Origin: a virus
Taxonomy: Duplodnaviria > Heunggongvirae > Uroviricota > Caudoviricetes
Strand: one strand, 5' to 3'
IMG/VR virus record: IMGVR_UViG_3300044824_000100
Coordinates: 1-64,000 of that record
DNA: 64,000 nucleotides
Shown: positions 22,989 to 45,198 of the stretch, piece by piece
How the letters are laid out: each line of letters opens with the position of its first letter
Position numbering within the stretch: position 1 is the first letter of the stretch
The notes under the pieces: generated by a model
Databases searched by the model: none
What the model saw: only the letters and a program-made list of their open reading frames with translations
Told to the model about the DNA's origin: nothing
Translations under genes and position numbers: made by a program

Positions 22989-23033
22989 GCGAAGATTATA
23001 CCGGCTTCATACTTAATGAGGTATAAATAACCC

Positions 23034-31754: not shown

Positions 31755-31950
31755 ATTTCCTCCGATGTTGTATTACGTGAGGAATATTAGATTCGGAAGA
31801 CTAGTTATCCGGGTAGATTGTATTTTTGCCTGAACCCGTCATAAAAACGATACGTGTCGAGATGCTCCGTTGGCCTAATAGGGTTACGACATGAACCCTT
31901 TGCTTGGCCGTCCCATGCATTAGCTAAGAGAAGAAGCAAGAGTCTTAAGT

Positions 31951-32103
31951 CTAGCATACGCCCTTGTATTTGTCCTTAAATTTGTTCCAGAAACTCACGG
32001 TACGGATAGAGCTATCCTCCACGAGAGGAGATGGCCAAAGCGCCTTTGCTCTGCCATTGTGTAGTTGACTTAAGAGGTTAAGTAAGCGCTTCAAGTCTAA
32101 CAC
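31951..32103 (-). CDS. small ORF, tandem paralog 1 of 3 (50 aa, GTG start)
   Basis: Third unit of about 150-bp tandem repeat; VLDLKRLLNLLSQLHNG...FWNKFKDKYKGVC. Confidence 0.35.
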   Translation of the reverse strand: MLDLKRLLNLLSQLHNGRAKALWPSPLVEDSSIRTVSFWNKFKDKYKGVC

Positions 32104-32246
32104 AGCTTATATTTGTCCTTAAACTTAGACCAAAATCTATTAGTGTGCACCTCGCCATCTTTCGCAATGGGAGATGCCCACGACACCTTAGCACTACCAT
32201 CGTGCAAGTAGGATAGTAAACTAAGTAAACGCTTTAAGTCTAGCAT
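32097..32246 (-). CDS. small ORF, tandem paralog 2 of 3 (49 aa)
   Basis: MLDLKRLLSLLSYLHDG...FWSKFKDKYKLC; ATG overlaps upstream stop as ATGCTAG. Confidence 0.4.
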   Translation of the reverse strand: MLDLKRLLSLLSYLHDGSAKVSWASPIAKDGEVHTNRFWSKFKDKYKLC

Positions 32247-32392
32247 ACGCCGTCGTATTTATCCTTGAATTTACTCCAGAAAGACGCTGTGTTTATAAAC
32301 TCATCCTCGACGATCGGAGATGGCCATTGCGATCTCGAATGACCATCGTGCAACTTGCTCAGAAATTTAAGTAAACGTTTTAAGTCTATCAT
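32240..32392 (-). CDS. small ORF, tandem paralog 3 of 3 (50 aa)
   Basis: MIDLKRLLKFLSKLHDG...FWSKFKDKYDGVC. Confidence 0.4.
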   Translation of the reverse strand: MIDLKRLLKFLSKLHDGHSRSQWPSPIVEDEFINTASFWSKFKDKYDGVC

Positions 32393-32544
32393 TGGTTGAT
32401 GATTGCACGGATGGTATCAACAGGCGGCGCACGATCTCGCCACCGGATACTCCGACTATGAATATGTATGTTAGATATGCTACTATAATGTGCATAAGTG
32501 TAATATGTGGAACCAGATGCAGAACACCTGGTTCCACATTGATC

Positions 32545-33039
32545 TTAGCTGTTCACCATCGAGCGAAGCTCTGCTGGCAGAGCTGCGACATCGATAGGCT
32601 TAGCAGGTTTGCGGGATGCTTTGATCTCGATGACGCGAGCATCGATAAAGGTCTGGATCTCAGCCTTCTCCGATGGATCGGTCTTGGTGCCGAGAAGAGC
32701 ACGCATCGCCTTGAGTGAAGCATCGCTGGAACCGACGCGGCTTCCAGGATTCTTGGCTTCGTACTTCACTCCACCGTTAAGACGTTCGTCTTTACGGAGC
32801 CAGTTGCTCGTGAGGCCAGAGCAGTACGTGCGGAGTTCTGCTTCGGTCGTGAACGACTTGTCGAGAGTGATTGACCCACTGTTGAAGCCTTCAACGAGGA
32901 TGTTGGTCACTTGAGCACGGAGCTCACGGTTTAACTGGGAAGAATATCCTTCACCTTCGATGACGGAGATTCCAGCTTCGGATAGAACAGAAGAAACAGC
33001 GGAAAATACTGCTTCTTTCTGTGATTGTTGAGTACTCAT
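32545..33039 (-). CDS. hypothetical protein, paralog of 40693..41151
   Basis: Shares SNWLRKD.LNGGV.Y.AKNPGSR.GS.DAS..AMR.LL....DPSE..EIQ.FID.R and LPAEL with the other copy. Confidence 0.5.
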   Translation of the reverse strand: MSTQQSQKEAVFSAVSSVLSEAGISVIEGEGYSSQLNRELRAQVTNILVEGFNSGSITLDKSFTTEAELRTYCSGLTSNWLRKDERLNGGVKYEAKNPGSRVGSSDASLKAMRALLGTKTDPSEKAEIQTFIDARVIEIKASRKPAKPIDVAALPAELRSMVNS

Positions 33040-33102
33040 CTAAAAATGCCCTCCTTATAGGGTTTATGAGTGTTTGTTGACATGGGCAAATAGTTTCAGG
33101 AA

Positions 33103-33438
33103 TTATTCGTCCATGATATCTCTTAGTGCGTCATCTACCTCCATGGTAAATATGCGTTCTAAGATATTTTTACAGTTTTCGAAGTCAGGCAGCTCGAGTG
33201 TATTAACTAGTTCGTCTCGGTTGGCTCCGTACAGATTCTTGATATGTCCCCATCTCTGGTACTGGTCAGTACGCAAGTTACGCTGTTCTTGCTTCTGCTG
33301 CTCCTTAGCATGATGAGGGTTGAGACGAGTTCTCAAGCCATAATGATGGTCCATCTGAACTATGTAATCCATAGTTTTCTTTATGTGACTCCACTTGTCA
33401 AAAGTGGATAGCGCGGTAAATTCATCTTCAGTCATGGT
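33103..33438 (-). CDS. hypothetical protein
   Basis: Listed ORF trimmed to MTEDEFTAL Met. Confidence 0.35.
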   Translation of the reverse strand, partial: TMTEDEFTALSTFDKWSHIKKTMDYIVQMDHHYGLRTRLNPHHAKEQQKQEQRNLRTDQYQRWGHIKNLYGANRDELVNTLELPDFENCKNILERIFTMEVDDALRDIMDE

Positions 33439-33682
33439 GCTTCTCCGCATATAGCACGTACAAGCGATTAAGCAGCATCCTGTACCATGACGTGTTGTAC
33501 ACGTAATTGACTGCGACACTTTTAATGTCTAGTAGGGTAAGCAATCTCATGAAGTGAGAGCATGCATCTTCCATAGCTAGGTGATTTTTCATGGCTTCCA
33601 CACCTTCAGCTTCCACAGAAGTTCGCACAGATCGTATGTACGACCGTATCCATTCTCTCTGTCGTTCTTGTTCTTGCTCCAT
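33428..33682 (-). CDS. hypothetical protein
   Basis: 84 aa. Confidence 0.35.
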   Translation of the reverse strand: MEQEQERQREWIRSYIRSVRTSVEAEGVEAMKNHLAMEDACSHFMRLLTLLDIKSVAVNYVYNTSWYRMLLNRLYVLYAEKHHD

Positions 33683-33842
33683 CTACCGCTCAACAAGGTA
33701 CATTTGATTGCCCAGTTATTAGCCCATGAATCATCAAACTCACTACTGAAGATCCTCCAATGTATCTGAACCGTCCCGTCGGACGCTAACATGGAACCAC
33801 GCAAAAAATTCAGCGATAGATTCATCTAGCCTATTATACAAA

Positions 33843-34232
33843 TTACGATTGGATTGCTTGATCGATGATGTACGACGCAAGCTTGTCCTGGAAATCTTCG
33901 GCAATCATGTTTATGATCAAATGTTGGTCCATAAATATCTTGGCGGAAAGAAGTGGTAAATTGTCCACGATAGAAAATCCCAGTTGCCAACATCTCCACT
34001 CAGAGATGTCAGAATCGGACCACTTACTTCTAGTGACCATTAAACATTTGTATGTTTTCAAGTCGAAGAAAAGTTGAACAGGGATAATATTGTGATCTGC
34101 CTTGCAATGAAAAGTAAACCTCAACGCCATTTGGGCATTCACGGAGTCAACGATGTATATTGTCCTACTTTCCTCAGAGAATGCCACCCTTCTTGCCTTA
34201 AACTCATTGACGACACTCATGCGAACGCACAC
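33843..34232 (-). CDS. hypothetical protein
   Basis: 129 aa. Confidence 0.35.
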   Translation of the reverse strand: MCVRMSVVNEFKARRVAFSEESRTIYIVDSVNAQMALRFTFHCKADHNIIPVQLFFDLKTYKCLMVTRSKWSDSDISEWRCWQLGFSIVDNLPLLSAKIFMDQHLIINMIAEDFQDKLASYIIDQAIQS

Positions 34233-34275
34233 ATGAGGAACACGATGACGATGATGAGGTAGAAGATGGGAATAG

Positions 34276-34521
34276 TCATCCGATCAGTTTAATGCCATAG
34301 TATATGAACCAACCGCCGCACCAAGCAACGCCAAATAAGGCTAATAACTTCAGCCAGGTTGGGTAAATTGACGGGTTGGCTCTGTGCATGCTCACGCTGA
34401 ATAGGTTCAGGAGTAGACAGATAAACTGTAACGCCGTGTTGAATACCATGTTCACTCCTTCTCTACTACGACTTGAGGCTGGAAACCATTCGCCAGGCAC
34501 TCGGCGTAGTATTCCTTGCAA
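34276..34521 (-). CDS. small membrane protein
   Basis: Two predicted TM helices. Confidence 0.4.
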   Translation of the reverse strand: MQGILRRVPGEWFPASSRSREGVNMVFNTALQFICLLLNLFSVSMHRANPSIYPTWLKLLALFGVAWCGGWFIYYGIKLIG

Positions 34522-34682
34522 ACCAAAACTTCTCTGGCGATCTCACTGCCGTGGCCGATAACCTCATCCTGACCCGTCTTGTAGTTGGGACGAGTATAGG
34601 TCGTGTTGCGGATATGGGTAACGAGACGATGGGCGGGTTCGTTGGGCTTGGTCATTTTTCCGGTCTTGGCGCATTTGAACAT
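34452..34682 (-). CDS. hypothetical protein
   Basis: Start set at MFKCAKTGK Met with AAGAGGGAAA SD. Confidence 0.4.
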   Translation of the reverse strand: MFKCAKTGKMTKPNEPAHRLVTHIRNTTYTRPNYKTGQDEVIGHGSEIAREVLVCKEYYAECLANGFQPQVVVEKE

Positions 34683-34696
34683 ATTAGTTTCCCTCT

Positions 34697-34891
34697 TTAA
34701 ATTTGGCAAGAACTTCGCCAACTTCGTTTGTGATCTCTACGAAATGCCCTTTCGGAGTGCCCTTTCGGAGTGCGCTGACACATGTCGCTTGCGGTCCTCA
34801 GAGCTTGTTCAAAGCTGGACTCATCAACTGCTTCAATGAGGTATTTAGCCGGACCTGGATTCTTCATTCGCATGCTCACTGTGCATTTCAT
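34697..34891 (-). CDS. hypothetical protein with C-terminus altered by 13-bp tandem duplication
   Basis: Removing one copy of TGCCCTTTCGGAG restores a more protein-like C-terminus HFVEITNEVGEVLAKFKEGN ending at the SD of the next gene. Confidence 0.35.
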   Translation of the reverse strand: MKCTVSMRMKNPGPAKYLIEAVDESSFEQALRTASDMCQRTPKGHSERAFRRDHKRSWRSSCQI

Positions 34892-34924
34892 ACGCGTTCT
34901 CCTATTTCCTAGACAGGAATAGAT

Positions 34925-35281
34925 TCAGTAATGATTCGCATAGATGTTGAGTTTATCGAGTACCCTACGAAGTGAATATTTCGCCTTGGCGTCCTTAGAT
35001 TCCTTGATTTCATTCCTCTTAGCCAGTCTGAACTCGTCATACCGTCTTAACATCTGATACTGCGTCACGTTTGCACCAACGTCGAGCCATCTCTGAATGA
35101 CGTCCCAACCCAGCGATTGGAACTCGAACACTCCATACTCTGAGTCCTCAGTAGCGGCCATGAACTTATAGATAGACCTCTTGTAAGACCTATCCGTTCC
35201 CGTCACCATAGCACCTATCTTGAAGGGAATCTTACTCTTCTTAGGTTTCTTTTTTATCGGCTTTTTCTTCTTGGACGGCAT
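34925..35281 (-). CDS. hypothetical protein with Lys/Pro-rich N-terminus
   Basis: 118 aa. Confidence 0.4.
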   Translation of the reverse strand: MPSKKKKPIKKKPKKSKIPFKIGAMVTGTDRSYKRSIYKFMAATEDSEYGVFEFQSLGWDVIQRWLDVGANVTQYQMLRRYDEFRLAKRNEIKESKDAKAKYSLRRVLDKLNIYANHY

Positions 35282-35326
35282 TTCCCTATTATACTGATTG
35301 GATCAGGACCCTGATATAATAGGAAA

Positions 35327-35632
35327 ATGGAGTACTTAACGTTCAACTCAGGATCTCAGTGGACTCTTAACAAGTCCGTTAAGCCTCCTTATTCCTCTCC
35401 CGAGGGAGGCGTATCTACTCCAAGGGATTACAGCGAACCTGGCAATGATTTTAAAGCCTACTCTAGTGTTACTGGTCAACTGCACGAAGACCACGGACAG
35501 AAGGGTTCAGTTCACGGGCAACCAGGTAATAAGAGAGCTCCTAAGCAAGGATTGCCTAGAAAGCATTGGGGCAAACCCGCTACTAAACTTCCCTCTGCTG
35601 CTGCGAACGCAGATCCTGGACTTGGGATTTAA
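35327..35632 (+). CDS. hypothetical low-complexity protein
   Basis: Plus-strand ORF with CCCTGATATAATAGG promoter-like motif upstream; divergent from minus gene. Confidence 0.3.
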   Translation: MEYLTFNSGSQWTLNKSVKPPYSSPEGGVSTPRDYSEPGNDFKAYSSVTGQLHEDHGQKGSVHGQPGNKRAPKQGLPRKHWGKPATKLPSAAANADPGLGI

Positions 35633-35783
35633 CTCTTTGCTCATACCCTATGAAGCTCCATTGGTTATCGAATCGTTCAAAATCTATTATATCGAATAGG
35701 TGCAACAGAAACAACAGACGCGTGAGCTGATTGTGGTTAACGTAGTGAGGCAACCTACTGCGGGTAAGATTGTTAGTCTTCAT
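35583..35783 (-). CDS. small ORF, paralog pair member
   Basis: LTRLLFLLHLFDIIDFERFDNQWS. Confidence 0.35.
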   Translation of the reverse strand: MKTNNLTRSRLPHYVNHNQLTRLLFLLHLFDIIDFERFDNQWSFIGYEQRVKSQVQDLRSQQQREV

Positions 35784-35979
35784 GTGTTAATCCCAGTCCA
35801 GTAAGAGATTTGATCCTGAGCGCGTATGCGTCGTAGCTCCAATGATTATTGATGTCTTCCCAATAGATTATATCTAGTAGATGAAGTAGAAATATTAAGC
35901 TAGCCAACGGGGGAACGTCATAGTTCCTACATGCTATACTATGGCGAATAAGTAGGTCTTTTTCCGTCACTCTAGACAA
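35773..35979 (-). CDS. small ORF, paralog pair member
   Basis: LASLIFLLHLLDIIYWEDINNHWS aligns with neighbour. Confidence 0.35.
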   Translation of the reverse strand: MSRVTEKDLLIRHSIACRNYDVPPLASLIFLLHLLDIIYWEDINNHWSYDAYALRIKSLTGLGLTHED

Positions 35980-36305
35980 TCTTTAGTTACCTTTGCTAGC
36001 CACTTCATCTTTTTCCTGGAAACCCTTATACTGCCGTTACGAGCCGCATCCCACATCTGGTACACCTGGTGATGGATAGCATAATGGAAGTCGGTGATGT
36101 CGAATGTCTCTAATGCCTTGCTAACGAATTCCTGAGTGAGCTCATCATGCTTCAGGCCAAGCTTACTCATTTCCTTTTCTCTCTGAGACAGATAAAATGC
36201 TATGTAGCGACATTTGTCGTTTGGGTTGAGCTTAGATAGCGTATCGTAGAATAGTTTACGAAACTTATCCAGATCGCCGGCGGAACAGACGAATCTTCTT
36301 CTCAT
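35967..36305 (-). CDS. hypothetical protein
   Basis: 112 aa. Confidence 0.35.
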   Translation of the reverse strand: MRRRFVCSAGDLDKFRKLFYDTLSKLNPNDKCRYIAFYLSQREKEMSKLGLKHDELTQEFVSKALETFDITDFHYAIHHQVYQMWDAARNGSIRVSRKKMKWLAKVTKDCLE

Positions 36306-36676
36306 GTGTCGATATTAGGATCAGAATCTTGGATTGCCCGCTCCAGGCAATAGGTTGCGTACGCCTCATCTATCATAGCGTTGTATCTGTCCTCTGGTTC
36401 TACGAAGAAGCTAAACCATTTCCAATTAGTGCCACCATGATGCATGGAGCTACCAAATTCGCGCCCGTGAACATTACCAGCATCCCATGGTTTAACGCTG
36501 CAAACTTGTCCGTCGCTGATTCCTAGCTCGAGCATTTGGTTTGCAACAACATCTCGCCCGAGTTCGAAATGCCATTTATTGCGCACTGCTCGCATCTGGA
36601 AGAAGTTAAATACCCACCCGTTTATTCTGACTTCATGTATGCTCAACCACTCCACATCACCCTTCATGCCAACCAC
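36302..36676 (-). CDS. hypothetical protein
   Basis: 124 aa. Confidence 0.4.
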   Translation of the reverse strand: MVGMKGDVEWLSIHEVRINGWVFNFFQMRAVRNKWHFELGRDVVANQMLELGISDGQVCSVKPWDAGNVHGREFGSSMHHGGTNWKWFSFFVEPEDRYNAMIDEAYATYCLERAIQDSDPNIDT

Positions 36677-36802
36677 TCCTTTTGCAGAACTCCGATATCT
36701 TTAGCTTGGTCATACCAGTTGGTACGTCAAGTTTACTTAATAGGTTTGACAAGTGGTAACAGGCCATATACATTGCGTAATTCTTCGGCCACGGACCCGA
36801 GT

Positions 36803-36973
36803 TCATCTCTTATCCCATGTCATGGCAAGTCTGTAAGCACTCCGTCTACTCATAAACGATAGTTTTCGTCTATTCATATTGAGGGCGAACAGTAGTGTAG
36901 TTAGCTTAAGAATCGAGTCCATTCGCCACTCTCGCCACATCTTTCTGTGCTTACGCTTCTGGTTACCACTCAT
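36803..36973 (-). CDS. small basic ORF
   Basis: ATGA start/stop overlap with upstream small ORF. Confidence 0.3.
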   Translation of the reverse strand: MSGNQKRKHRKMWREWRMDSILKLTTLLFALNMNRRKLSFMSRRSAYRLAMTWDKR

Positions 36974-37134
36974 CCTATTTCATCCTCGGGTCTGAAATAG
37001 GCGTACGAGCCAATCAGTTTGCTTAACAGCTTGCACAGTTGCCACCATTTGTTGGCATCCGCTCCAGCCGCAACGTGGCTTGACGAGTGCCATTCCCGCA
37101 TATGCATGTCTATCTGTTCTGGGGTTGGTCTCAT
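36970..37134 (-). CDS. small ORF (54 aa), paralog of 37131..37286
   Basis: MRPTPEQIDMHMREWH...WWQLCKLLSKLIG; a different frame from the listed 36980..37162 ORF. Confidence 0.4.
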   Translation of the reverse strand: MRPTPEQIDMHMREWHSSSHVAAGADANKWWQLCKLLSKLIGSYAYFRPEDEIG

Positions 37135-37286
37135 CTTCTACTCTTGTTGAATAAGCCCGCACCTATCAGTTTAGATAGGAGGAGTTCAAGACGTGACCAC
37201 TTATAAGCGTCTGTACCTGGTACGACCTTCTCGCAGAAGTGCCAGCGCTCCAGCATCATATCCACATCCATCGGCGTTGGTCTCAT
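37131..37286 (-). CDS. small ORF (51 aa), paralog of 36970..37134
   Basis: MRPTPMDVDMMLERWH...WSRLELLLSKLIG; ATGA coupling. Confidence 0.4.
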   Translation of the reverse strand: MRPTPMDVDMMLERWHFCEKVVPGTDAYKWSRLELLLSKLIGAGLFNKSRR

Positions 37287-37323
37287 GTAGATGATTCGTA
37301 TCAGGATGATAGTAGCACGGCCG

Positions 37324-37338
37324 GCGTAGCAGTGTCAG
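37324..37338 (+). repeat. 15-nt repeat GCGTAGCAGTGTCAG, copy 2
   Basis: Exact match. Confidence 0.9.
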
Positions 37339-37520
37339 CGTAGCGGGTTGTTTGCGTATCGCAAGCGGACGATACGACCTATGTTAATACCTTGCTCTTC
37401 GGAGATTATGCTTAGTTTCCACAGCATTCTTACTAGATTGCGAACGGCTTTGGATTGATACGTGTTTATGGAGATGCGACTCATCCACGGGTTATACCAA
37501 TGAAATGGCGGAGCTTCCAT
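37335..37520 (-). CDS. hypothetical small ORF
   Basis: 61 aa. Confidence 0.3.
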   Translation of the reverse strand: MEAPPFHWYNPWMSRISINTYQSKAVRNLVRMLWKLSIISEEQGINIGRIVRLRYANNPLR

Positions 37521-37544
37521 GCTCCTATCGGGGGAAATGACTCA

Positions 37545-37700
37545 GTGAATCATGGCGACGATAAGGCAGTACACAGTCATGATACCACATAGCATGCAGT
37601 ACCAACCAGGAAACACAGACGGATTTCTTGCCGCTCTCACAAACCAATAGAAGTTAAGTCCGGCACAGCAGAAATCCATAATCGATAGTGCACTATGCAT
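37545..37700 (-). CDS. small membrane peptide (52 aa)
   Basis: Hydrophobic, Cys-rich; shorter than the 60-aa listing threshold. Confidence 0.3.
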
Positions 37701-37709
37701 AGTTCCCTT

Positions 37710-38383: not shown

Positions 38384-38583
38384 GCGTGTTCTTCCTGGTT
38401 ATCGCAACCAGCACACGTGACATCGCTGCATGATTCGCATATGCCGTTGAGTTCGCAGCTGAACTCTGCCGTTACGATGCTATAGTCTTCAACTTGGGCA
38501 ATGAGCGCAGACTCAATCTCTTCTTGTTGCTCATCAGTTAGATCGCTGTCAACGATCACGGTGAATGTGATTTTGCGTGACAT
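38380..38583 (-). CDS. small acidic Cys-rich protein
   Basis: 67 aa. Confidence 0.35.
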   Translation of the reverse strand: MSRKITFTVIVDSDLTDEQQEEIESALIAQVEDYSIVTAEFSCELNGICESCSDVTCAGCDNQEEHA

Positions 38584-38712
38584 GATTCACCTCTTCTTGC
38601 TTGACTTAGAGCGCGAGCTTTACATACATCGAGCTGATTGAGGACATATAACAGCATGAATACACTCTGATCAGCGTCAACTGCCAACAAAGGCTCTAAT
38701 GGCGACCTTTTC

Positions 38713-38898
38713 CTAGCCACGGTATACCGGCCTTCTTTGCACGTACTCTATGAACTCGTACGGGTCGACTCGTGTTCCACTCCTAATGCCGAGTCTTTGC
38801 AGTATGTAGAAGAGTTTACCTGCAATGAGCCATGACTTATTCACCCTACCGTTAGTATGTAGCCCTACCGCCATAAGTTCTTCATATACCTTTCCCAC
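38713..38898 (-). CDS. small ORF of LLxxLGI(R/K)S family
   Basis: GKLFYILQRLGIRSGTRV. Confidence 0.4.
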   Translation of the reverse strand: MGKVYEELMAVGLHTNGRVNKSWLIAGKLFYILQRLGIRSGTRVDPYEFIEYVQRRPVYRG

Positions 38899-39050
38899 GT
38901 GAAATAACTCGAAGGCATAGCTGTCACCTTTAGCTTCGAAATCAGTGAAATCAGCCTACGTATGGCAATCGTCTTCTTGTGGGCAAGGACGTCATAGCTA
39001 GGATCACTCATAATTGCTCTGATGCATCGAGATATGAGGTTTAATCCCAA
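38865..39050 (-). CDS. small ORF of LLxxL family
   Basis: AIRRLISLISKLKV. Confidence 0.3.
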   Translation of the reverse strand: MGLNLISRCIRAIMSDPSYDVLAHKKTIAIRRLISLISKLKVTAMPSSYFTWERYMKNLWR

Positions 39051-39270
39051 GTTGACTCAATAGTTGACCCAGCATTGCACATCTCCTCAGGTTAAGGCGT
39101 CTGCATCCCCTGCATTCCCTATGCCGCCTACTGAAGTAGAAAGATGTCTCAACCCTATTCCATATCCAATTCCATATCCAAATCCTCACCCACTTAGTGG
39201 CTTCCTTGTGAACGAAGGCGTAGTAGGAAAGACTACCACCTAGGCATTTCCCACACTCACTCTTCACCAT
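39004..39270 (-). CDS. small ORF of LLxxLGI(R/K) family
   Basis: AMLGQLLSQLGIKPH. Confidence 0.35.
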   Translation of the reverse strand: MVKSECGKCLGGSLSYYAFVHKEATKWVRIWIWNWIWNRVETSFYFSRRHRECRGCRRLNLRRCAMLGQLLSQLGIKPHISMHQSNYE

Positions 39271-39553
39271 CTATCCTCCCCTGTGTCTGCTGGTGTAACG
39301 TATAGCCTCTGTCATGGTGACGTACAGCTTCCCTACATTCAAGCAGCGCAATATGAACATCAACAGCCAAACGCTTCTCATAGGTGCATCTGCATCGTTC
39401 TTCACCTACGCAACCGCTTCCTATATCGCTCTGTATATTCCTTACATTGATACCAATCCCACGTCCACCTAGCGATACCTAATTTCTGCAACAGGACCAT
39501 CAAGAACGACGCATTCTGTGTTTGACTAAATTTCACATGTGCCTTTACTACTT

Positions 39554-39757
39554 TCACCTGCGCACCTGCGATATATACCGAGTGCCATCTTGGACCGCTC
39601 TAAATGCTGCCCTTATAGCCTCTACCTGGGCTGTACGCTCATCCTCCCATACATCTAGCTTCATGAGGAGCACAAACAACCCATGTTTCATACCGCAGGA
39701 TATCCTGCAAGATGCATTGTGGTAGTGGGTCTTCGACGCGTAACCTGCTGATTTCAT
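39554..39757 (-). CDS. small ORF of LLxKL family
   Basis: GLFVLLMKLDVWEDE. Confidence 0.3.
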   Translation of the reverse strand: MKSAGYASKTHYHNASCRISCGMKHGLFVLLMKLDVWEDERTAQVEAIRAAFRAVQDGTRYISQVRR

Positions 39758-39830
39758 TGGAGCACCCTTGACAAACCCCTAGCATGGGCCGACGCCCGCC
39801 GAGCAACCAACCTTGCCCTACGCCTTGAAA

Positions 39831-40016
39831 TCACAGGGTATCACCGATTGGCGGGTACGCGAAGGTGAGCGATACTTCCCCTTCCCCTAGGAGCTTTGAC
39901 AAGAAATACGTGAGCTCCATCACCCTCGCGTCGTGATCATCTCTGCCCATCGTGTTGATGTACTTCCCGTAGTGGAGTTGAGACAGCATGATATCTACCT
40001 CTAGCCTCGTTCTCAT
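39831..40016 (-). CDS. small ORF of LLxKL family
   Basis: ELTYFLSKLLGEGEV; promoter-like ATCCTGATCCTAAT upstream. Confidence 0.35.
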   Translation of the reverse strand: MRTRLEVDIMLSQLHYGKYINTMGRDDHDARVMELTYFLSKLLGEGEVSLTFAYPPIGDTL

Positions 40017-40095
40017 TGGAGGAATTAGGATCAGGATATATGCTGGATAGTGGCTGATGTAGACCTGATGGTGGGCTGAGGGGTAGCCGAGCCTG

Positions 40096-40110
40096 GCGTA
40101 GCAGTGTCAG
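40096..40110 (+). repeat. 15-nt repeat GCGTAGCAGTGTCAG, copy 3
   Basis: Exact match. Confidence 0.9.
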
Positions 40111-40156
40111 CAGGGGATCGGTGGGGTATCAGCCTATCCTTGGCTGGGTTGCGGGA

Positions 40157-40339
40157 CTACTTGACGAGCTTGGTAAGGTCGCAGATGCAGGAGCTTGTGT
40201 TGCGATCCATCTTGCCCTCGTTAGGTAGGCACTTGGGTCTGCACGCTTGTCTGTCCTGCGCATCTAGATGGTCTGCGAGAGTGACGACGCCCAAAGCAAA
40301 CACGAACATGAACGCGTATATGGCTATGATTATCTTCAC
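40157..40339 (-). CDS. small secreted protein
   Basis: Signal peptide MKIIIAIYAFMFVFALGVVTLA, 4 Cys. Confidence 0.4.
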   Translation of the reverse strand: MKIIIAIYAFMFVFALGVVTLADHLDAQDRQACRPKCLPNEGKMDRNTSSCICDLTKLVK

Positions 40340-40371
40340 AGTTCCTCCACTATTCCAGGCGACATCTTGAC

Positions 40372-40521
40372 GATGTTGTAATAGTCCTCGGAGATGTCTC
40401 CGTCCGTTAGCGACTCAGTTTGGACCTGCATTGCGTCCAGCAGCTGGGCGTCATGCGGGAACTTGAGCGGCTTGTCCGTCTCAAACTCGATCGTCACTCT
40501 GTACTTAGGCATAAGTTCCTC
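40372..40521 (-). CDS. small ORF (49 aa)
   Basis: GGAGGAACTT SD and TCCTGATCTTATATAA promoter-like motif upstream. Confidence 0.35.
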
Positions 40522-40633
40522 CGATGTTGTTATATAAGATCAGGACAACGAGGTCGGATCTTGCGTGTGGCATAAGCACAGCATTGCACCTTAGTGCGTT
40601 GCCCTGATGGTTGTATATAGAGTCGGGATATAG

Positions 40634-40648
40634 GCGTAGCAGTGTCAG
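40634..40648 (+). repeat. 15-nt repeat GCGTAGCAGTGTCAG, copy 4
   Basis: Exact match. Confidence 0.9.
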
Positions 40649-40692
40649 TGGTGGGGACCAGGCGCTATGCCCGATCCCCACTCAACTCAATC

Positions 40693-41151
40693 TCAGCTGC
40701 CGTACTTAGCTTGCAACTCAGCCGGAAGATCAGAGACATTGATCGTCACGGTTTTCGCAGGGCGGATCTCGCTGAGGCGCTTGTCGATGAAGGATTGGAT
40801 CTCTTCGCGCTCAGACGGATCGTTCTTGGTCTTGAGCAACTCTCTCATTGCTCGGACGGATGCATCGGTAGATCCAGCGCGACTGCCTGGGTTCTTGGCG
40901 ACATACTGAACACCACCGTTCAGTTCTTTGTCCTTGCGAAGCCAGTTGCTCTGCAACCCGCTCACGTATGCTTTCAACTCAGAGTCGGTATACTCGCGTG
41001 AGAGTTCGATCTGCTTAGACTTGAAACCTTCGAACAAGATCTGATTCACCTGAGCGCGTTCTTCCTTGGTCGGCTTGAATGCACCGTCGGTTTCACCGCA
41101 GACGTTGATCAAAGCTTGGCGAACTGCATCTTTCTGTTTCATCTTGGTCAT
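40693..41151 (-). CDS. hypothetical protein, paralog of 32545..33039
   Basis: See 32545..33039; GGAGGAACAGAGT SD. Confidence 0.5.
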   Translation of the reverse strand: MTKMKQKDAVRQALINVCGETDGAFKPTKEERAQVNQILFEGFKSKQIELSREYTDSELKAYVSGLQSNWLRKDKELNGGVQYVAKNPGSRAGSTDASVRAMRELLKTKNDPSEREEIQSFIDKRLSEIRPAKTVTINVSDLPAELQAKYGS

Positions 41152-41318
41152 ACTCTGTTCCTCCGAACATTGTTATCGTTATGTACTTGATTAGATTCAG
41201 GATCTTATATCTTTGAACCATCATCTTGCTTACAACTTAATATAGAGTCGGGTAATCATGCAATCCGGATTGGATGGGGATTCTACATGTAGAGTCAGGA
41301 TAGCTGCTATGCCCCTGT

Positions 41319-41333
41319 GCGTAGCAGTGTCAG
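41319..41333 (+). repeat. 15-nt repeat GCGTAGCAGTGTCAG, copy 5
   Basis: Exact match; followed on plus strand by perfect hairpin GGTAGGAC-TACG-GTCCTACC (41337-41356). Confidence 0.9.
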
Positions 41334-41373
41334 CCAGGTAGGACTACGGTCCTACCCAGCCAACTGTTCTATT

Positions 41374-41528
41374 ACTATCCTGTCCTGCTCCAACCGCTCG
41401 TGCACTGCTCGCAGTCGCACTCGAAGTCTGCCTCATACAGCGACTCGTTCCTCGCCTGCTCCTTCTCGTCCTCCGCCTTCAAGAATGCCTCAAACCTCGC
41501 CATCAATGCTACATCATCTTTACTCATG
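41374..41528 (-). CDS. small acidic Cys-rich ORF (50 aa)
   Basis: ATGA coupling to upstream gene. Confidence 0.3.
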
Positions 41529-41751
41529 CGGCCTTCCTTTCAGTTGAGTATTCGATCTCTGTCTCCAATACCTTCACCAGCATTCCCTGCCTGTGAGCGA
41601 TGCTGAGCAGGATCTGGTTGCGGGCGCAGAGCAATCTCTCCAGGTGTATGGTTCTCCCAGCACGATGCTCTCTGCTCAGCTCAACACCCGCTTTGGCATA
41701 AGCCATCGTCAGCTCGCGTATCTCCAGCTTCAAACTCTCTTTAGTTCGCAT
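41524..41751 (-). CDS. hypothetical protein
   Basis: 75 aa, first gene of minus block next to divergent region. Confidence 0.4.
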   Translation of the reverse strand: MRTKESLKLEIRELTMAYAKAGVELSREHRAGRTIHLERLLCARNQILLSIAHRQGMLVKVLETEIEYSTERKAA

Positions 41752-42010
41752 ACGTTCTCTCCTTATATCTATCCTTAGGTTCGGGCACGGTCAGACCCAG
41801 TCTGAGTGGTTCTAGTTGCGCCCAATACTCTATCGTTTCAGGAATGGCCGTGTCATCGCTGACCTGTGTCAAAACAGGGCCCGCTGGCCTCGTCTTACAA
41901 GGGATCCCTTGAGTCGGGACCGGTACCCACGGCGAAGACTTTCTGTATATACACTTTTCCTATAGGTTCACAGGTACCCTGTACCCAACCCACACCGGTA
42001 TAATATAAAC

Positions 42011-42124
42011 ATGTTTGACGATCCCTACTACAACCTACTCGTACTCCTCGTCAAGCTCAACGTAGTCCACCACGCCATAGCCCACGCTGCATACAACAAC
42101 GGCTATAACACATACTCCTATTAG
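42011..42124 (+). CDS. small ORF of LLxKL family (37 aa)
   Basis: YNLLVLLVKLNVVHH; GGTATAATATAAAC immediately before ATG. Confidence 0.35.
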   Translation: MFDDPYYNLLVLLVKLNVVHHAIAHAAYNNGYNTYSY

Positions 42125-42166
42125 GTTCAACCAGGTACCAGTACCCATTTTCGTATAATATAAAAA

Positions 42167-42319
42167 ATGGAAAAACGCAAGGCCTTCGGCCACCTCATCA
42201 CTCTCCTCTTCAAGCTCGGCGCCACCAGGTATGTCCACATCCCCGTCGTCAGCAACGCCTACCATCTCGAAGACTACGAAAATCTCATGGGCGGTCTCAA
42301 GTATCGGACCTACCGATGA
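42167..42319 (+). CDS. small ORF of LLxKLG family (50 aa)
   Basis: FGHLITLLFKLGATRYVH; CGTATAATATAAAAA immediately before ATG; upstream module duplicated from previous gene. Confidence 0.35.
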   Translation: MEKRKAFGHLITLLFKLGATRYVHIPVVSNAYHLEDYENLMGGLKYRTYR

Positions 42320-42480
42320 AGCATCGCATGGTCACCAAAGTAGATACAACAAAGCCTGAGCACGTGTCGTTCAACCATCGCGTCCGCTTGATATCACTCC
42401 TGGTCTCCCTCGATGTCTGGGTGCCTCACCACGCCGATTGGCCCACGACAGGGATACTCGTAGGTGACAAATGGCCGTGA
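42316..42480 (+). CDS. small ORF of family (54 aa)
   Basis: VRLISLLVSLDVWV; ATGA coupling. Confidence 0.35.
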   Translation: MKHRMVTKVDTTKPEHVSFNHRVRLISLLVSLDVWVPHHADWPTTGILVGDKWP

Positions 42481-42683
42481 TACTCACAGGATCTAAAGTG
42501 TCAATAACGGTCGTCGGCAGGCCCATCCTATGGGCAGCCGACGTAACGTGGGAACTCCACACCAAGTGCTCTTGCCCACGCAACTCGTGGCATGAGAATG
42601 ACGTGAGGTCCAACTCCCAAGCTGGCCTCGTCAACCTTCTCCATAAGCTACTTCATAAGAACATCTATGAACATACTAGATAA
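42471..42683 (+). CDS. small ORF of family
   Basis: AGLVNLLHKLLHKNI. Confidence 0.35.
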   Translation: MAVILTGSKVSITVVGRPILWAADVTWELHTKCSCPRNSWHENDVRSNSQAGLVNLLHKLLHKNIYEHTR

Positions 42684-42861
42684 CGCCGCTGGCGCCGTGC
42701 ACCTCGTGCGCACGCCAGGCGAAACCGACGCGCAGCTTCTCACGAGGATAAAGGCGTACTACGCGATGCGGGCGATCGAGGCATACCTGCCCTTGCTCAT
42801 CATGCTTAATAAGCTCAACCTCATAAGCGCCAAGTTTATGCTAAGGAAACCGCTACCATGA
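42667..42861 (+). CDS. small ORF of family
   Basis: EAYLPLLIMLNKLNLIS. Confidence 0.35.
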   Translation: MNILDNAAGAVHLVRTPGETDAQLLTRIKAYYAMRAIEAYLPLLIMLNKLNLISAKFMLRKPLP

Positions 42862-43028
42862 GGTGCTGGTGCAACTCCCCGCAGCCACGCCACGCCCACG
42901 TGAATGCTTACGCGTACGACTCACATACAAACTTGATCAACAGCAAGTTGTATCACTGGCAGCGAACGCAGCAATGGTTTGACCTCATGACCATTTTGTA
43001 CAAGCTTGGCATTACGGTGGCCTACTGA
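42858..43028 (+). CDS. small ORF of family
   Basis: QQWFDLMTILYKLGITVAY; ATGA coupling. Confidence 0.35.
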   Translation: MRCWCNSPQPRHAHVNAYAYDSHTNLINSKLYHWQRTQQWFDLMTILYKLGITVAY

Positions 43029-43162
43029 TGATTGACTACACCGAGCATGCCTTCTACGGGTATCCAAACAATCGACAAGCCCGGCAGTATAACGCTAGAC
43101 TGTACCTATGCATACTTCTTCAGAAGCTGGGCTTGAGGTCCCATCGTCAGAGGTACATGTGA
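43028..43162 (+). CDS. small ORF of family (44 aa)
   Basis: NARLYLCILLQKLGLRS. Confidence 0.35.
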   Translation: MIDYTEHAFYGYPNNRQARQYNARLYLCILLQKLGLRSHRQRYM

Positions 43163-43326
43163 ACCGTGGACCTCAAGCTGCCCAGCGTTTGTTCTCGCTA
43201 CTTCTGTACCTTGGACTCAAGAGTACTCGCAAGCATGTGTGGGCTTACCGCGCGATGAAGCACCAAAGCGCTAAGCACTTGGCCTCGTATCAACCGCAGG
43301 GGGCGCTATTTTTAAGCCCAAGGTAG
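43108..43326 (+). CDS. small ORF of family
   Basis: AQRLFSLLLYLGLKST; alternative GTG start at 43159 would remove the overlap. Confidence 0.35.
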   Translation: MHTSSEAGLEVPSSEVHVNRGPQAAQRLFSLLLYLGLKSTRKHVWAYRAMKHQSAKHLASYQPQGALFLSPR

Positions 43327-43335
43327 AATACCTCC

Positions 43336-43593
43336 ATGAAAATGCTATTCATCTCGCTTATTGCCGTCATGCTTGCATCTTGTGTTTCCGCGCCCCAGCC
43401 TTACGATATCACCCAGCACCTCTACCGCGTCCAGCCCAGGATTGCTAACAATTTAAAGTGCGTGATATCTCATAAGATTCTACTCCCAGGTGATCACTTG
43501 CAGATACTCGACGTCCCCGCAGAATCATGCCACATGCTGGTTCCAAAAGAGCCGCTAAGCAACGGTATGCCTACGTTCGACTGCTGGAGATAG
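43336..43593 (+). CDS. small lipoprotein
   Basis: Signal peptide MKMLFISLIAVMLASC. Confidence 0.45.
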   Translation: MKMLFISLIAVMLASCVSAPQPYDITQHLYRVQPRIANNLKCVISHKILLPGDHLQILDVPAESCHMLVPKEPLSNGMPTFDCWR

Positions 43594-43594
43594 T

Positions 43595-43729
43595 GTGGCA
43601 ATACGCGTAACATTTAACAGAGCTACAATTTATAAGCCAGGCGTATACGGACCAACTAAGCCGTGGCATTTCCAGCTGCTAATGTTCTTGAGCAAGCTAG
43701 ATATCAAGGCTAGATACAGTGAGATGTAA
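43595..43729 (+). CDS. chimeric small ORF: copy of the first 17 sheath codons fused to a family motif
   Basis: VAIRVTFNRATIYKPGVY matches the sheath N-terminus MAINVTFNGATIYKPGAY (about 84 percent nt identity over 56 nt), then WHFQLLMFLSKLDIKA. Confidence 0.35.
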   Translation: MAIRVTFNRATIYKPGVYGPTKPWHFQLLMFLSKLDIKARYSEM

Positions 43730-43889
43730 GCATAAGTATCGTCACCTATGTGCTGAGGAGTTGCTCCACTTAATATACGTGCTGGGCATCAAGAGTACCG
43801 AGAAACCTCTCATAAGGGTGGGTCGATCGACCGCCGGCAAGTGCGGCTACTTCTACAACGGTAAACTCTTCCGAATGGTGCGCTGGTAG
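43719..43889 (+). CDS. small ORF of family (GTG start)
   Basis: AEELLHLIYVLGIKSTEKP. Confidence 0.3.
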   Translation: MRCKHKYRHLCAEELLHLIYVLGIKSTEKPLIRVGRSTAGKCGYFYNGKLFRMVRW

Positions 43890-43898
43890 AATATATAG

Positions 43899-44117
43899 AT
43901 GCTAGCACCACATCAGCAATTTCCAGCCACTTCTAAGTGGCCACCTAAGCCAACTATAGAGGAAGAGTACCTTCTCAACTGGGGAGGGCGCTTTTTCCTT
44001 CTCGGCAGTAACTATCCATTGTCTCGTCTTATGATCTTACTGATAAAGATGGAAGTGGTGGACGGCTGCACCGACATGAATAGGATCTTACTTATGAACG
44101 GAAGGACGATGGAGTAG
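43899..44117 (+). CDS. small ORF of family
   Basis: LSRLMILLIKMEV. Confidence 0.3.
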   Translation: MLAPHQQFPATSKWPPKPTIEEEYLLNWGGRFFLLGSNYPLSRLMILLIKMEVVDGCTDMNRILLMNGRTME

Positions 44118-44338
44118 TGGACATAGGAGATAGACGACTAGGTCTGCTTATGCTTCTCGTTAGGCTCGACGTCCTGGGCATAAGGAAGGTGAGCTACAGC
44201 CACCTGTCGCAGATGATAAATCCACAACCTGACCCGCCATGCAGCATACCTTGTGCCTTGGTGAACCTATCTAAGGAATTTATGCAATTCGTTCCCAAGG
44301 CTAAGTACAAGGGAGAGGACTGGTATAACCCACCATGA
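44117..44338 (+). CDS. small ORF of family
   Basis: RRLGLLMLLVRLDVLGIRKV. Confidence 0.35.
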   Translation: MDIGDRRLGLLMLLVRLDVLGIRKVSYSHLSQMINPQPDPPCSIPCALVNLSKEFMQFVPKAKYKGEDWYNPP

Positions 44339-44541
44339 TTGATCTACCATCTACTAAGCATGGCCTGTACCACAGCTGTGCCTACTGTCAATATCATACC
44401 AGCATGAACCATATCATACCAAGCGTTCGCGCGCACGGTTTTATAGCCGCGTTCAACCTGTTGCATCTTCTTCGTACGCTCAACGTAGGGAATGCTATCG
44501 ATAACCGCAACAATATCTTGCTCACCTCTGGAGCTATATAG
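44335..44541 (+). CDS. small ORF of family
   Basis: AAFNLLHLLRTLNVGNA. Confidence 0.3.
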   Translation: MIDLPSTKHGLYHSCAYCQYHTSMNHIIPSVRAHGFIAAFNLLHLLRTLNVGNAIDNRNNILLTSGAI

Positions 44542-44676
44542 ATGAATACTACTCCTTTGAGCGCTTACGCCCTGCTTGAACTACTGACGGACCTTGGCAT
44601 AAGGAGTGCTTTGTACGTACATGGCGAAGAAGTTCAAGAGTTCATTATAAGTCACGGATCCTGGGAGTCAGTGTGA
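44542..44676 (+). CDS. small ORF of family (44 aa)
   Basis: AYALLELLTDLGIRSALYV. Confidence 0.35.
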   Translation: MNTTPLSAYALLELLTDLGIRSALYVHGEEVQEFIISHGSWESV

Positions 44677-44906
44677 GCATGTTTCCATCGTACGGTGAGA
44701 TAGGCAAAAAAGAAAAGGCCCGCGACGACCTTAATACCCTACTACGTAGACTTGGTATCCGCTCAGCAAGGTCGTCATACTTTGGTGGGGCTCTATCTGA
44801 AGCTGAACTGCAGGCTGCATTCAACAGGATACAAAGTGATTACGGGAAGCCAGATTGTTTCATGATGGATGCACAGACGTTGGCTGCTATGAAGAACCTT
44901 AAGTAG
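44673..44906 (+). CDS. small ORF of family
   Basis: DLNTLLRRLGIRSARSSY; the GIRS codons differ from other members, so conservation is at the protein level. Confidence 0.4.
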   Translation: MSMFPSYGEIGKKEKARDDLNTLLRRLGIRSARSSYFGGALSEAELQAAFNRIQSDYGKPDCFMMDAQTLAAMKNLK

Positions 44907-44907
44907 C

Positions 44908-45198
44908 TCAGTCCGTACCGCGTAGATGATGTCTTCTGGAAATTCTTCCGAACACCTTTTCTAACAGTTCTTCTTGGCAAATCTTGGTTTTGTCGCTGCT
45001 GTATCCATCCTTCACTACAGAGTAGTCAGCCCCAGTGAAGTCGTGTATGGTGTAATCGCCAAATACGTCCCCGCCATCTTCCACGGCCTTCTCGGTGTGG
45101 GCGCTTAGATGACCAATCACTCTCAGCCTTTGCAACATCTTGAATAGCTGGTAGGTGGAGGAAACCTGATCTGCGGTGAGTTTCGAATAGAATGTCAC
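44908..45198 (-). CDS. hypothetical protein (possible divergent family member)
   Basis: TYQLFKMLQRLRVIGHLS. Confidence 0.35.
   Translation of the reverse strand: MTFYSKLTADQVSSTYQLFKMLQRLRVIGHLSAHTEKAVEDGGDVFGDYTIHDFTGADYSVVKDGYSSDKTKICQEELLEKVFGRISRRHHLRGTD

Follow-up and report, generated by a model that had tools for sequence, protein, structure and literature searches.

A window of 64,000 nucleotides (nt) from an uncultured tailed phage (IMG/VR record IMGVR_UViG_3300044824_000100, positions 1 to 64,000) contains, between 31 and 46 kb, a region densely filled with small open reading frames (ORFs). We found that a block of 14 residues, L-[LFI]-x-[LF]-L-x-K-L-[G/N/D]-[I/V/L]-[K/R]-S-A-[R/K], is repeated in the small ORFs at 33.4-45.2 kb. 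Each of these proteins would consist of a variable head and one common module of 14-20 residues, combining a short amphipathic Leu-rich helix (L-L-x-L-L-x-K-L), a G/N/D C-cap, a hydrophobic residue and a basic K/R-S-A-R/K tail. Our tentative reading, to which we assign a probability of about 0.4, is that the module is a portable docking helix that tethers all these small basic proteins to one common, probably virion-borne partner. The partner would most likely be part of the phage's own particle, either the interior of an HK97-type capsid or the tail, and the proteins would either travel in the virion and enter the cell together with the DNA, or have their effect on assembly. We infer from the data below that the module binds something, that its partner is shared and that this partner is virion-associated.

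The window is part of the genome of an uncultured large myophage and encodes a ribonucleotide reductase, NAMPT, a DNA ligase, a tail sheath of 943 amino acids (aa) and a probable tape measure. No near-identical phage was found among 50,697 GenBank phage records; the closest sheath is that of Myxococcus phage Mx1, with 30% identity across half of the protein. Relatives in IMG/VR form a clade of uncultured myophages with genomes of about 175 kb, from which 65 related loci were fetched using two anchor genes that flank the region. Since circularity had to be avoided, a hidden Markov model (HMM) was built solely from block instances of these other phages (69 non-redundant instances, window sequences left out) and was then used to score every one of the 1,404 stop-to-stop ORFs in the window, with 30 residue-shuffles as control. 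Scores called window-trained below come from separate models that were built with the window instances.

Using the independent HMM, 14 window ORFs scored at least 9 bits, where 0.07 were expected from the shuffles; the motif is therefore present in clear excess over shuffled composition. Lower cut-offs gave 18 ORFs at 7 bits or more (0.5 expected), 25 at 5 or more (1.9) and 37 at 3 or more (6.9). A strict regular expression matched 19 times in the window, 13 of these at 38.6-44.6 kb, and the HMM matches concentrate in the frame of the long ORFs. All 163 matches of at least 9 bits in the window and the related loci lie in ORFs of at most 140 aa, and none of the real large proteins, 231,000 residues in total, reached 8 bits. 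Across 86 distinct instances the block reads L (93%), [LFI], x, [LF], L (99%), x, K/R (81%), L (99%), G/N/D (94%), I/V/L (98%), K/R, S, A, R/K. The cap position is G in 59% and N or D in 35%, the residue preceding it is L in 99%, and the second residue after it is K or R in 44%. Outside the block there is no conservation among these instances. The basic residue at position 7 (81%) and the G/N/D cap (94%) point to a defined geometry and a contact, beyond mere hydrophobicity.

The block is conserved at the protein level and not at the DNA level, since the conserved Leu positions use all six Leu codons with varying third positions and since two different codon sets encode GIRS. As the initial annotation had stated, these are GGC ATA AGG AGT at 44.59 kb and GGT ATC CGC TCA at 44.75 kb, and a codon alignment bore out both the places given for the motif and its conservation as protein. 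A DNA or RNA element that is merely read through in translation, such as a repeat, a promoter or a ribosome-binding site, is ruled out by the free codon variation; an Rfam scan of the window found a single tRNA and nothing else. Stop-codon recoding that would join the ORFs was also rejected, because adjacent ORFs sit in different frames.

At least 25 members had been claimed at first. An expanded protein-level family indeed exists, but only about 20 members in the range are firm, and about 8-10 of the 25 are indistinguishable from chance. The reduction concerns above all two groups that score 2-4 bits, which is noise level: the LLSKLHDG copies, of which there are four and not three at 31805-32392, and two LLSKLIG copies at 36970-37286. 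Both groups are separate tandem paralogue sets outside the firm family. Some matches are alternative-frame artefacts: 52692-52805 lies within the sheath gene, and 22188-22520 (minus strand, 8 bits) falls within the RNase H gene at 22012-22527 and has a counterpart of 13 bits in a relative (L015, 5723-6076, plus strand). The RNase H match is most likely a by-product of conserved DNA and serves as a caution that motif counts must respect the reading frame. Weaker candidates outside the range lie at 30834-30992, 27195-27425, 21846-22187 and about 10840-10869, all on the minus strand.

The genes are real and conserved across the clade. Orthologues in related phages exist for many members, and in orthologue pairs the proportion of nonsynonymous differences (pN, 0.27-0.48) is well under that of synonymous differences (pS), which is saturated (0.59-0.90). 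The ends of the ORFs are kept as well, as in ...KLGITVAY versus ...KLGICVLY directly before the stop codon. Two family members (P0001 and P0005) were predicted by the Joint Genome Institute (JGI) gene callers.

The position of the block varies widely. Depending on the ORF, the first motif residue lies between about residue 8 and residue 107, and the stretch from the motif match to the stop codon measures some 2 residues at the 5th percentile and some 53 at the 95th, with the block lying about 10 residues or less from the stop in about a quarter of instances. The earlier view that the element is no simple signal peptide is thus upheld: it is a portable helix in N-terminal, internal or C-terminal placement. 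When the two best-sampled subfamilies, (a) and (b), were compared with hhalign, the match (88% probability) was limited to 25 columns, which correspond to the block. Clustering gave many small orthologue groups with the block as their sole common part. The members are mostly basic, with a median isoelectric point (pI) of 9.5. Two metagenomic relatives show the module in unusual arrangements. P0115 (132 aa) is a fusion of homologues of the proteins encoded at 44117-44338 and 44673-44906 and carries two module copies, and in P0169 the C-terminal half of subfamily (a) precedes the module, by circular permutation or as a junction of tandem genes.

A G, N or D followed by a hydrophobic residue is a classical helix C-cap, and Leu residues at i, i+3, i+4 and i+7 form one amphipathic face. 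AlphaFold2 models of two members agree with this geometry. For 42667-42861 (alignment of 7 sequences; mean predicted local distance difference test score, pLDDT, 81.6) a helix at residues 21-49 ends at the K-L of the motif with N as the cap. For 44673-44906 (33 sequences; pLDDT 70.7, predicted template modelling score 0.29) a helix at residues 5-25 ends at the L-G of the motif, with no confident tertiary packing and no compact two-helix unit. The block therefore forms the C-terminal end of a predicted helix in both models, as the proposal of a common helix had anticipated.

Subfamily (a) is the most widespread: a search of 1.84 billion proteins yielded 134 representatives at 50% identity, almost all of them stand-alone proteins of 51-106 aa. 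The sequence L..[LF]L.KLGIKSA is near-invariant, with about 65-95% of 144 members agreeing at each position of K-L-G-I-K-S-A, and N[FY]GxPDxhhM[SD]P forms another conserved stretch. For subfamily (b) we found seven homologues, all of 63-72 aa, and no larger homologue among 5.8e9 proteins. An IMG/VR-wide scan for [LF]LxKLGIKS returned 77 stretches, which by a rough estimate is about chance level; five IMG/VR loci were confirmed by tblastn, all from contigs of this clade or from samples yielding the clade. As the motif count is near chance level, the family does not, as far as such searches tell, extend past this one clade of uncultured myophages with genomes of about 175 kb. Pfam-A and PHROGs were scanned with 10 window members, 7 relatives and 146 members of subfamily (a), and all matches stayed below threshold. 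When the bare motif was run as a profile against the PDB, every match was of a generic helix-Gly-strand kind, in an intein endonuclease, in designed proteins and in an alpha/beta hydrolase, and a literature search found no paper containing the peptide strings. The family is new and unannotated. Even if its function turned out to be mundane, a new family of small proteins is defined here, in which subfamily (a) alone comprises the 134 clusters, none of them annotated.

The heads of these proteins are informative too. The ORF at 43595-43729 (plus strand, 44 aa, 13.9 bits) begins with the first ~18 residues of the sheath (VAIRVTFNRATIYKPGVY) and continues with the motif QLLMFLSKLDIKA. About 55 nt of it are nearly identical to the start of the sheath gene carried by the same phage (50381-53212, plus strand; phrog_279 tail sheath, E 4.5e-28), GGAGAT closely precedes both start codons, and the sheath HMM matches the small protein at E 5e-4. 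The first ~18 codons of the sheath gene are the source or the model of this N-terminus. The same kind of chimera, in which a sheath arm is followed by Y-G-P/D...W and then by the motif, occurs in at least three other phages, represented by the related loci L024, L010 and L040. Their conserved codons depart from the sheath gene mainly at synonymous sites. In the L024 chimera 10 of 11 synonymous sites differ from that phage's sheath gene while F-N-G..I..PG.Y is kept, indicating protein-level selection on the sheath-arm head. Scanning 16,388 small ORFs with HMMs of all large window proteins recovered the sheath-arm ORFs at E 5e-5 to 0.014.

The same scan found ORFs that combine the motif with the N-terminus of a tail tube protein (L040_7471_7713, E 2e-5; L005_7651_7938, E 0.002-0.02), and L010 also has such an ORF. 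The window itself encodes three tube-like paralogues of 191, 212 and 221 aa (54779-56762, plus strand), whose N-terminal ~30 residues recur in the motif ORFs of relatives. These paralogues, at 54779-55354, 55450-56088 and 56097-56762, share an N-terminal segment of the form ..TG...K[IL]...G....[FY]A..... At the level of sequence, some heads were thus shown to be copies of sheath or tube N-termini. Other heads carry Cys clusters. The plus-strand array of motif genes adjoins the virion module and has the same orientation.

A third likeness concerns subfamily (a), which resembles a segment of an HK97-type major capsid protein, a similarity that is suggestive only. Thirteen of 146 members match the Pfam family SU10_MCP under the gathering score (best E 0.0011), with residues 36-76 aligned to profile positions 159-199 of 292, and there are nine member matches on four PHROGs annotated as major head protein (best E 7e-4). 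A PDB profile search pointed to the HK97-fold particle 2e0z (E 0.42), covering the block and the C-terminal half. Two further candidates were rejected: a baseplate origin of subfamily (b), for which there are just two faint matches (E about 0.3), and, as a possible model for the motif, the N-terminus (VVVRRLIDLGIKELR) of a 254-aa protein encoded ahead of the sheath, which scores just 0.7 bits.

At least five homing-endonuclease-like genes of the HNH or endonuclease VII type lie in the window, at 11142-11780 (minus), 21261-21812 (minus), 24577-25149 (plus), 28565-29107 (minus) and 53209-53862 (minus). The last of these is located on the opposite strand directly behind the sheath gene. Such genes could drive the partial duplications of the sheath and tube 5' ends.

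Taken together, the sharp and position-independent block, its conserved polar residues, the small size and basic character of the proteins and the independent heads argue for a docking peptide rather than for the remnant of a diverged fold. The virion-derived heads, the neighbourhood of the structural module and the L-G-I-plus-basic core of the block make the particle the likely partner, and the sheath and tube chimeras together with the capsid-like segment favour the virion over a host target. Several observations weigh against this reading. Subfamily (a) resembles capsid proteins only weakly (best E about 1e-3; E 0.42 in the PDB search), the clade's major capsid gene was not found in the window, in the fetched loci or beyond both window ends, and the comparison of 42471-42683 with the tube protein 54779-55354 gave a blastp E of 0.08 and was not significant in the head HMM scan. 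The module usually lies internally within a long helix, while the targeting sequences of encapsulin cargo and of T4 internal proteins are terminal and flexible, and the replacement of G by N or D in a third of instances fits a helix cap better than a flexible hinge. Most ORFs of the plus-strand array overlap their neighbours by 1-4 bases and are not preceded by a Shine-Dalgarno sequence. Lastly, a short Leu-rich helix could be merely the stable core of rapidly diverging paralogues.

Short tags shared by small proteins that are otherwise unrelated serve to load the internal proteins of T4 and the cargo of encapsulins. If the module is a new tag of this kind, it would provide a handle on injected or particle-associated 'dark matter' proteins across a clade of uncultured large phages, and it would be a candidate for a portable peptide to load cargo into HK97-type shells or tails. 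The chimeras with the sheath arm and the tube would then be natural small proteins assembled from pieces of structural-protein interfaces.

Paralogue divergence is the most serious of the alternatives, although we consider it unlikely. The proteins would be ordinary fast-evolving paralogues, small early 'host-takeover' proteins with separate targets and no common partner, and the motif would be their most constrained piece. Tandem duplications are indeed visible, both in the duplicated upstream regions of 42011 and 42167 and in paralogue pairs and quartets. AlphaFold2 gives plain helices, and the region consists of unannotated small genes, as is typical of phage early regions, with no known domain in our scans. 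However, the similarity ends abruptly at the block even between well-sampled subfamilies, the block shifts its position and may form the last residues of the protein, the K at position 7 and the basic tail are conserved across paralogues, and the same block occurs on heads of independent origin (sheath arm, tube N-terminus and Cys clusters). The abrupt boundary, the mobile block and the independent heads point to the shuffling of a module rather than to divergence.

The chimeras themselves suggest another explanation, which we regard as rather improbable: the heads would copy interfaces of structural proteins and cap or block the cognate subunits, with the shared helix adding a blocking or recruiting function. 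Contractile-tail sheath subunits interlock via exchanged N- and C-terminal strands, and the F-N-G..I..PG.Y of the sheath arm is under protein-level selection in small ORFs of at least four phages. The tube N-terminus chimeras, the recurrent capsid matches of subfamily (a) and the two faint baseplate matches of (b) fit as well. Such mimics could serve to keep subunits from polymerising too early, to sabotage related phages in the same cell or to distract host sensors that recognise structural proteins. But most members have no recognisable virion-derived head, the likeness to capsid and baseplate proteins is weak, and such peptides would poison the phage's own assembly unless they were timed or degraded. 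Moreover, we know of no precedent for a phage-encoded battery of interface mimics. In its full form, a battery of mini-proteins that join virion contact segments to a common docking helix and act in trans as caps, placeholders, poisons or sensor decoys is improbable to a slightly greater degree. The segments on which such a battery would draw are the N-terminal arm of the sheath, the tube N-terminus, an A-domain segment of the capsid and possibly a segment of a baseplate wedge. If it were true, such a battery would amount to a modular and evolvable control or sabotage of virion assembly; to our knowledge, no modular assembly-control system of this kind has been described in a phage genome.

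Nucleic-acid binding has a poorer standing still. The block would be the first helix and turn of a degenerate helix-turn-helix (HTH) or of a SAP, HeH or Rho_N domain, and the basic tail would contact DNA or RNA. The high median pI agrees with this, many members have a second helix about 5-10 residues past G-I, and the hydrophobic spacing followed by G-[ILV]-[KR]-S presumably recalls the first helices of SAP and Rho_N. Yet the Pfam models for HTH, SAP, HeH and Rho_N gave no match in about 170 members except for one to SAP_new25 (E 0.015), and AlphaFold2 predicted no compact two-helix unit. In addition, the quarter of ORFs that end about 10 residues or less past the block cannot form a second helix, because the stop comes too early. 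Two members, 42858-43028 and 43595-43729, end 4 and 7 residues past G-I, in agreement with the initial annotation, which had concluded that the motif does not form a complete HTH.

It is very doubtful that the block is a shared degron, that is, an exposed Leu-rich tag for timed clearance by a host or phage protease. Peptidases of the ClpP-like, trypsin-like and subtilase types are encoded by the phage, as is an AAA ATPase, a relative has a second ClpP/SppA-like gene and a MoxR-type ATPase just past the window end, and the module is hydrophobic and not tied to one position. The known tags for Clp and Lon, however, are mostly terminal and have no such defined cap geometry, and the ClpP-like gene, which adjoins that of a scaffold-like protein, may encode nothing more than the prohead protease.

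That the ORFs are non-functional, either decaying fragments of homing endonucleases (LAGLIDADG debris) or chance Leu/Lys-rich ORFs, is the least credible explanation: the best PDB matches of the motif include the LAGLIDADG intein endonuclease 7qsu/7qss, the genome holds the HNH or EndoVII-type genes mentioned above and many ORFs have no Shine-Dalgarno sequence, but the PDB matches are of the generic helix-Gly-strand type that is seen in designed proteins too, neither LAGLIDADG nor any other endonuclease model matched in the Pfam scans, and debris is largely excluded by the conservation data, namely the shuffle controls, pN below pS, the conserved ORF ends and the 134 clusters of intact small proteins in subfamily (a).

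Turning to the individual genes, the plus-strand array at 42011-44906 that had been described from the sequence is real and comprises 16 ORFs, 15 of which carry the motif or a variant. The ATGA start/stop overlaps reported for it were found at 42316, 42858 and 44335; in addition, genes overlap by GTGA at 44673 and by a single base at 43028 and at 44117. The array opens with a 37-aa member (42011-42124; motif NLLVLLVKLNVV, 19.0 bits), which has a promoter-like TATAAT 6 nt before its ATG, and a 50-aa member (42167-42319; HLITLLFKLGAT, 11.3 bits), whose upstream region is a duplicate of that of 42011. They are followed by two weak members, one of 54 aa (42316-42480; RLISLLVSLDVW) with 8.4 bits in the window-trained HMM only and an ATGA overlap, and one of 70 aa (42471-42683; GLVNLLHKLLHK, 4.4 bits) with a faintly tube-like N-terminus. 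The 64-aa member of subfamily (b) at 42667-42861 (15.2 bits) has GL.R.PGETD..L..RI before the motif. In the 56-aa member at 42858-43028 (15.5 bits) the motif lies at the extreme C-terminus, the protein ending in LMTILYKLGITVAY, and orthologues in L010 and L024 keep the same protein end. Next are a 44-aa member with CILLQKLGLRS (43028-43162, 17.9 bits) and a member of at most 72 aa with an uncertain start (43108-43326; LFSLLLYLGLKST), which scores 11.7 bits in the window-trained and 3.6 bits in the independent HMM.

The sole array gene without the motif, 43336-43593 (plus strand), encodes an 85-aa protein with a lipoprotein-like signal (MKMLFISLIAVMLASC). Behind it and the sheath chimera, the 56-aa member at 43719-43889 (LLHLIYVLGIKST) has only 4.7 bits, but its orthologue L010_8017_8322 reaches 14.1 bits, and pN is 0.33 versus a pS of 0.73. 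Membership of the weak 72-aa protein at 43899-44117 (RLMILLIKMEVV, 2.7-3.5 bits) is uncertain. The 73-aa member at 44117-44338 (GLLMLLVRLDVLGIRK, 9.0 bits) has orthologues in three loci with a ratio of nonsynonymous to synonymous substitution rates (dN/dS) of 0.17-0.40. A 68-aa member at 44335-44541 (12.4 bits), with orthologues in 4-5 loci, has a Cys/His cluster (H..CAYCQYH) before NLLHLLRTLNV. The array closes with a 44-aa member (44542-44676; ALLELLTDLGIRSA, 17.8 bits) and the 77-aa member of subfamily (a) (44673-44906, 12.7 bits), in which the motif is followed by N[FY]GxPDxhhM.P.

On the minus strand, a conserved 96-aa protein (44908-45198) with orthologues in 13 loci carries a motif variant (YQLFKMLQRLRVIG, 5.6 bits). 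Further members are encoded at 39554-39757 (67 aa; GLFVLLMKLDVW, 8.8 bits, and 17.4-18.1 in window-trained HMMs), 39402-39557 (51 aa; FLMVLLQKLGIA, 13.1 bits), 39004-39270 (88 aa; CxxC...CxxC, then LGQLLSQLGIK, 6.6 bits; homologue L022_657_944), 38713-38898 (61 aa; KLFYILQRLGIRSG, with a probable second helix after the motif, 15.8 bits) and 38556-38720 (54 aa; FMLLYVLNQLDV, 11.4 bits). A 49-aa protein with LSNLLSKLDV (36657-36806, 7.1 bits) and an 84-aa protein (33428-33682; FMRLLTLLDIKS, 5.2 bits) are moderate members. Two adjacent paralogues of 66 and 68 aa at 35583-35979 carry LLFLLHLFDI and LIFLLHLLDI (5.9 and 6.0 bits). A Lys-rich protein of 118 aa (34925-35281, 4.3 bits), with a TATAAT-N6-ATG start, ends in the motif variant LRRVLDKLNIYANHY, and its orthologue L013_14167_14529 scores 12.0 bits. 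The four tandem 50-aa paralogues at 31805-32392 follow the pattern M[LI]DLKRLLxLLSxLHDG...FWxKFKDKY (2.1-2.7 bits; paralogy E 1e-9 to 1e-22), with overlaps of a few bases between successive copies. No homologue of theirs was found in the fetched related loci, which indicates a recent local expansion.

The first two array ORFs have TATAAT 6-7 nt ahead of their ATG, and at least 10 window genes show this layout of TATAAT, 6-8 nt and ATG without a Shine-Dalgarno sequence, as in leaderless transcripts. The sites are 42005-42013, 42160-42169, 35321-35329 (plus), 35281-35293 (minus), 33825-33838 (minus), 53862-53874 (minus), 55443-55452 (plus), 22988-23000 (minus), 11666-11678 (minus) and 10804-10818 (minus). 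The sequence GTATAATA occurs 10 times in the window, where 2 occurrences are expected, and a scan for sigma-70 promoters and terminators found no enrichment. Since other window genes have strong GGAGG sites, two classes of translation start may coexist in the window.

A second shared short module, F..NGQW[ST]L.K, lies at the N-terminus of a 101-aa protein (35327-35632, plus strand) that is conserved in 14 loci and divergently transcribed inside the minus-strand block. It also occurs N-terminally in a 250-aa protein encoded between sheath and tube (53932-54684, plus), within the scaffold-like 303-aa protein at 18062-18973 (plus) and in small copies of about 100 aa within the motif arrays of related phages. 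Much of the block of small genes on the minus strand is flanked by two paralogues of 164 and 152 aa (32545-33039 and 40693-41151, both minus), which are conserved in 43 related loci. The former had no Pfam match and the latter no match among GenBank phages. A paralogue of their N-domain is encoded at 11814-12191 (minus), and a 68-aa protein (29432-29638, minus) shares their ...LPA.L..KYG ending.

The window also encodes a rich protease and quality-control set of trypsin-like, subtilase (S8), ClpP-like, AAA ATPase and SPFH/HflC-like proteins (14883-15740, 15791-16534, 17338-18003, 4215-5207 and 943-2205, all minus), and in the relative L074 the region past the left window end (12502-17303) contains a second ClpP/SppA-like gene, a MoxR-type ATPase and a VWA-like gene. 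Genes related to nicotinamide adenine dinucleotide (NAD) comprise NADAR, NAMPT and a phosphoribosyl pyrophosphate (PRPP)-synthetase-like gene (3531-4022, 6087-7562 and 7559-8413, all minus) as well as a 515-aa NUDIX-domain protein within the virion module (47118-48665, plus). A single tRNA-Met (CAT) at 11078-11151 (minus) is the only Rfam or ARAGORN match in the window.

The closest phage precedent for the proposed docking helix is found in T4, where the internal proteins IPI, IPII and IPIII and the Alt protein share a capsid targeting sequence (CTS) of about 10 residues, are docked to the assembling particle and are injected with the DNA. Like the T4 internal proteins, the members of the present family are small, basic, otherwise unrelated and fast-evolving, are encoded in a variable cluster and have one short peptide in common. 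The T4 CTS, however, always occupies the N-terminus and is removed by the prohead protease, which cleaves after L/I-x-E, whereas the block described here stands anywhere, its start ranging from about residue 8 to 107, and has no conserved cleavage site: an E follows S-A in only 26 of 144 members of subfamily (a), the residue being otherwise R, K, N or D. The sequence of the block differs from that of the CTS too, and packaging is here a proposal.

A second parallel are the targeting peptides of encapsulins, in which an L-G-I core plus basic residues anchors cargo to the inner face of an HK97-fold shell (PMC7925596). Their definition is two hydrophobic residues around Gly (L-G-I or G-S-L) followed by one or more basic residues, with NTGGDLGIRK as a native peptide and DGSLGIGSLKG as a consensus (PMC7925596). 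Phage capsids share the HK97 fold with encapsulin shells, and the block, with its core K-L-G-I-[KR]-S, conforms to this pattern. Encapsulin peptides, in contrast, are C-terminal and flexible and stand behind Gly/Ser/Pro linkers, while the core described here ends a rigid Leu-rich helix, is preceded by this predicted helix and not by a linker, often has N or D in place of G and lies near the C-terminus in only about 25% of instances. As the terminal position distinguishes both the T4 CTS and the encapsulin peptides from the block, we would say that the module works like such a tag rather than that it is one.

Satellite proteins that hijack assembly offer a further comparison. The C-terminal helix of CpmB from Staphylococcus aureus pathogenicity islands (SaPI) mimics the scaffold of phage 80alpha. 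The family would resemble such hijackers in consisting of small helical proteins with a copied segment of a virion or scaffold interface, if the proposed action on assembly is correct. The hijackers, however, are single satellite-encoded genes without a family-wide module, whereas the phage carries its own family of about 20 members. With SAP, HeH, Rho_N and the classical HTH the block has in common a helix ending in G/N, then [ILV]-[KR/x]-S, and a similar hydrophobic spacing, but it gave no profile match to them and many members have no second helix. Oomycete RxLR, Plasmodium PEXEL and type VI secretion system (T6SS) MIX effectors form large families of otherwise unrelated small proteins that have one short delivery motif in common; they belong to other organisms, use other motifs and place them N-terminally, and the likeness is one of architecture only. 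The architecture of the family is thus a variation on the known theme of a short shared tag on diverse small proteins, to which the chimeras with virion fragments are an unexpected addition.

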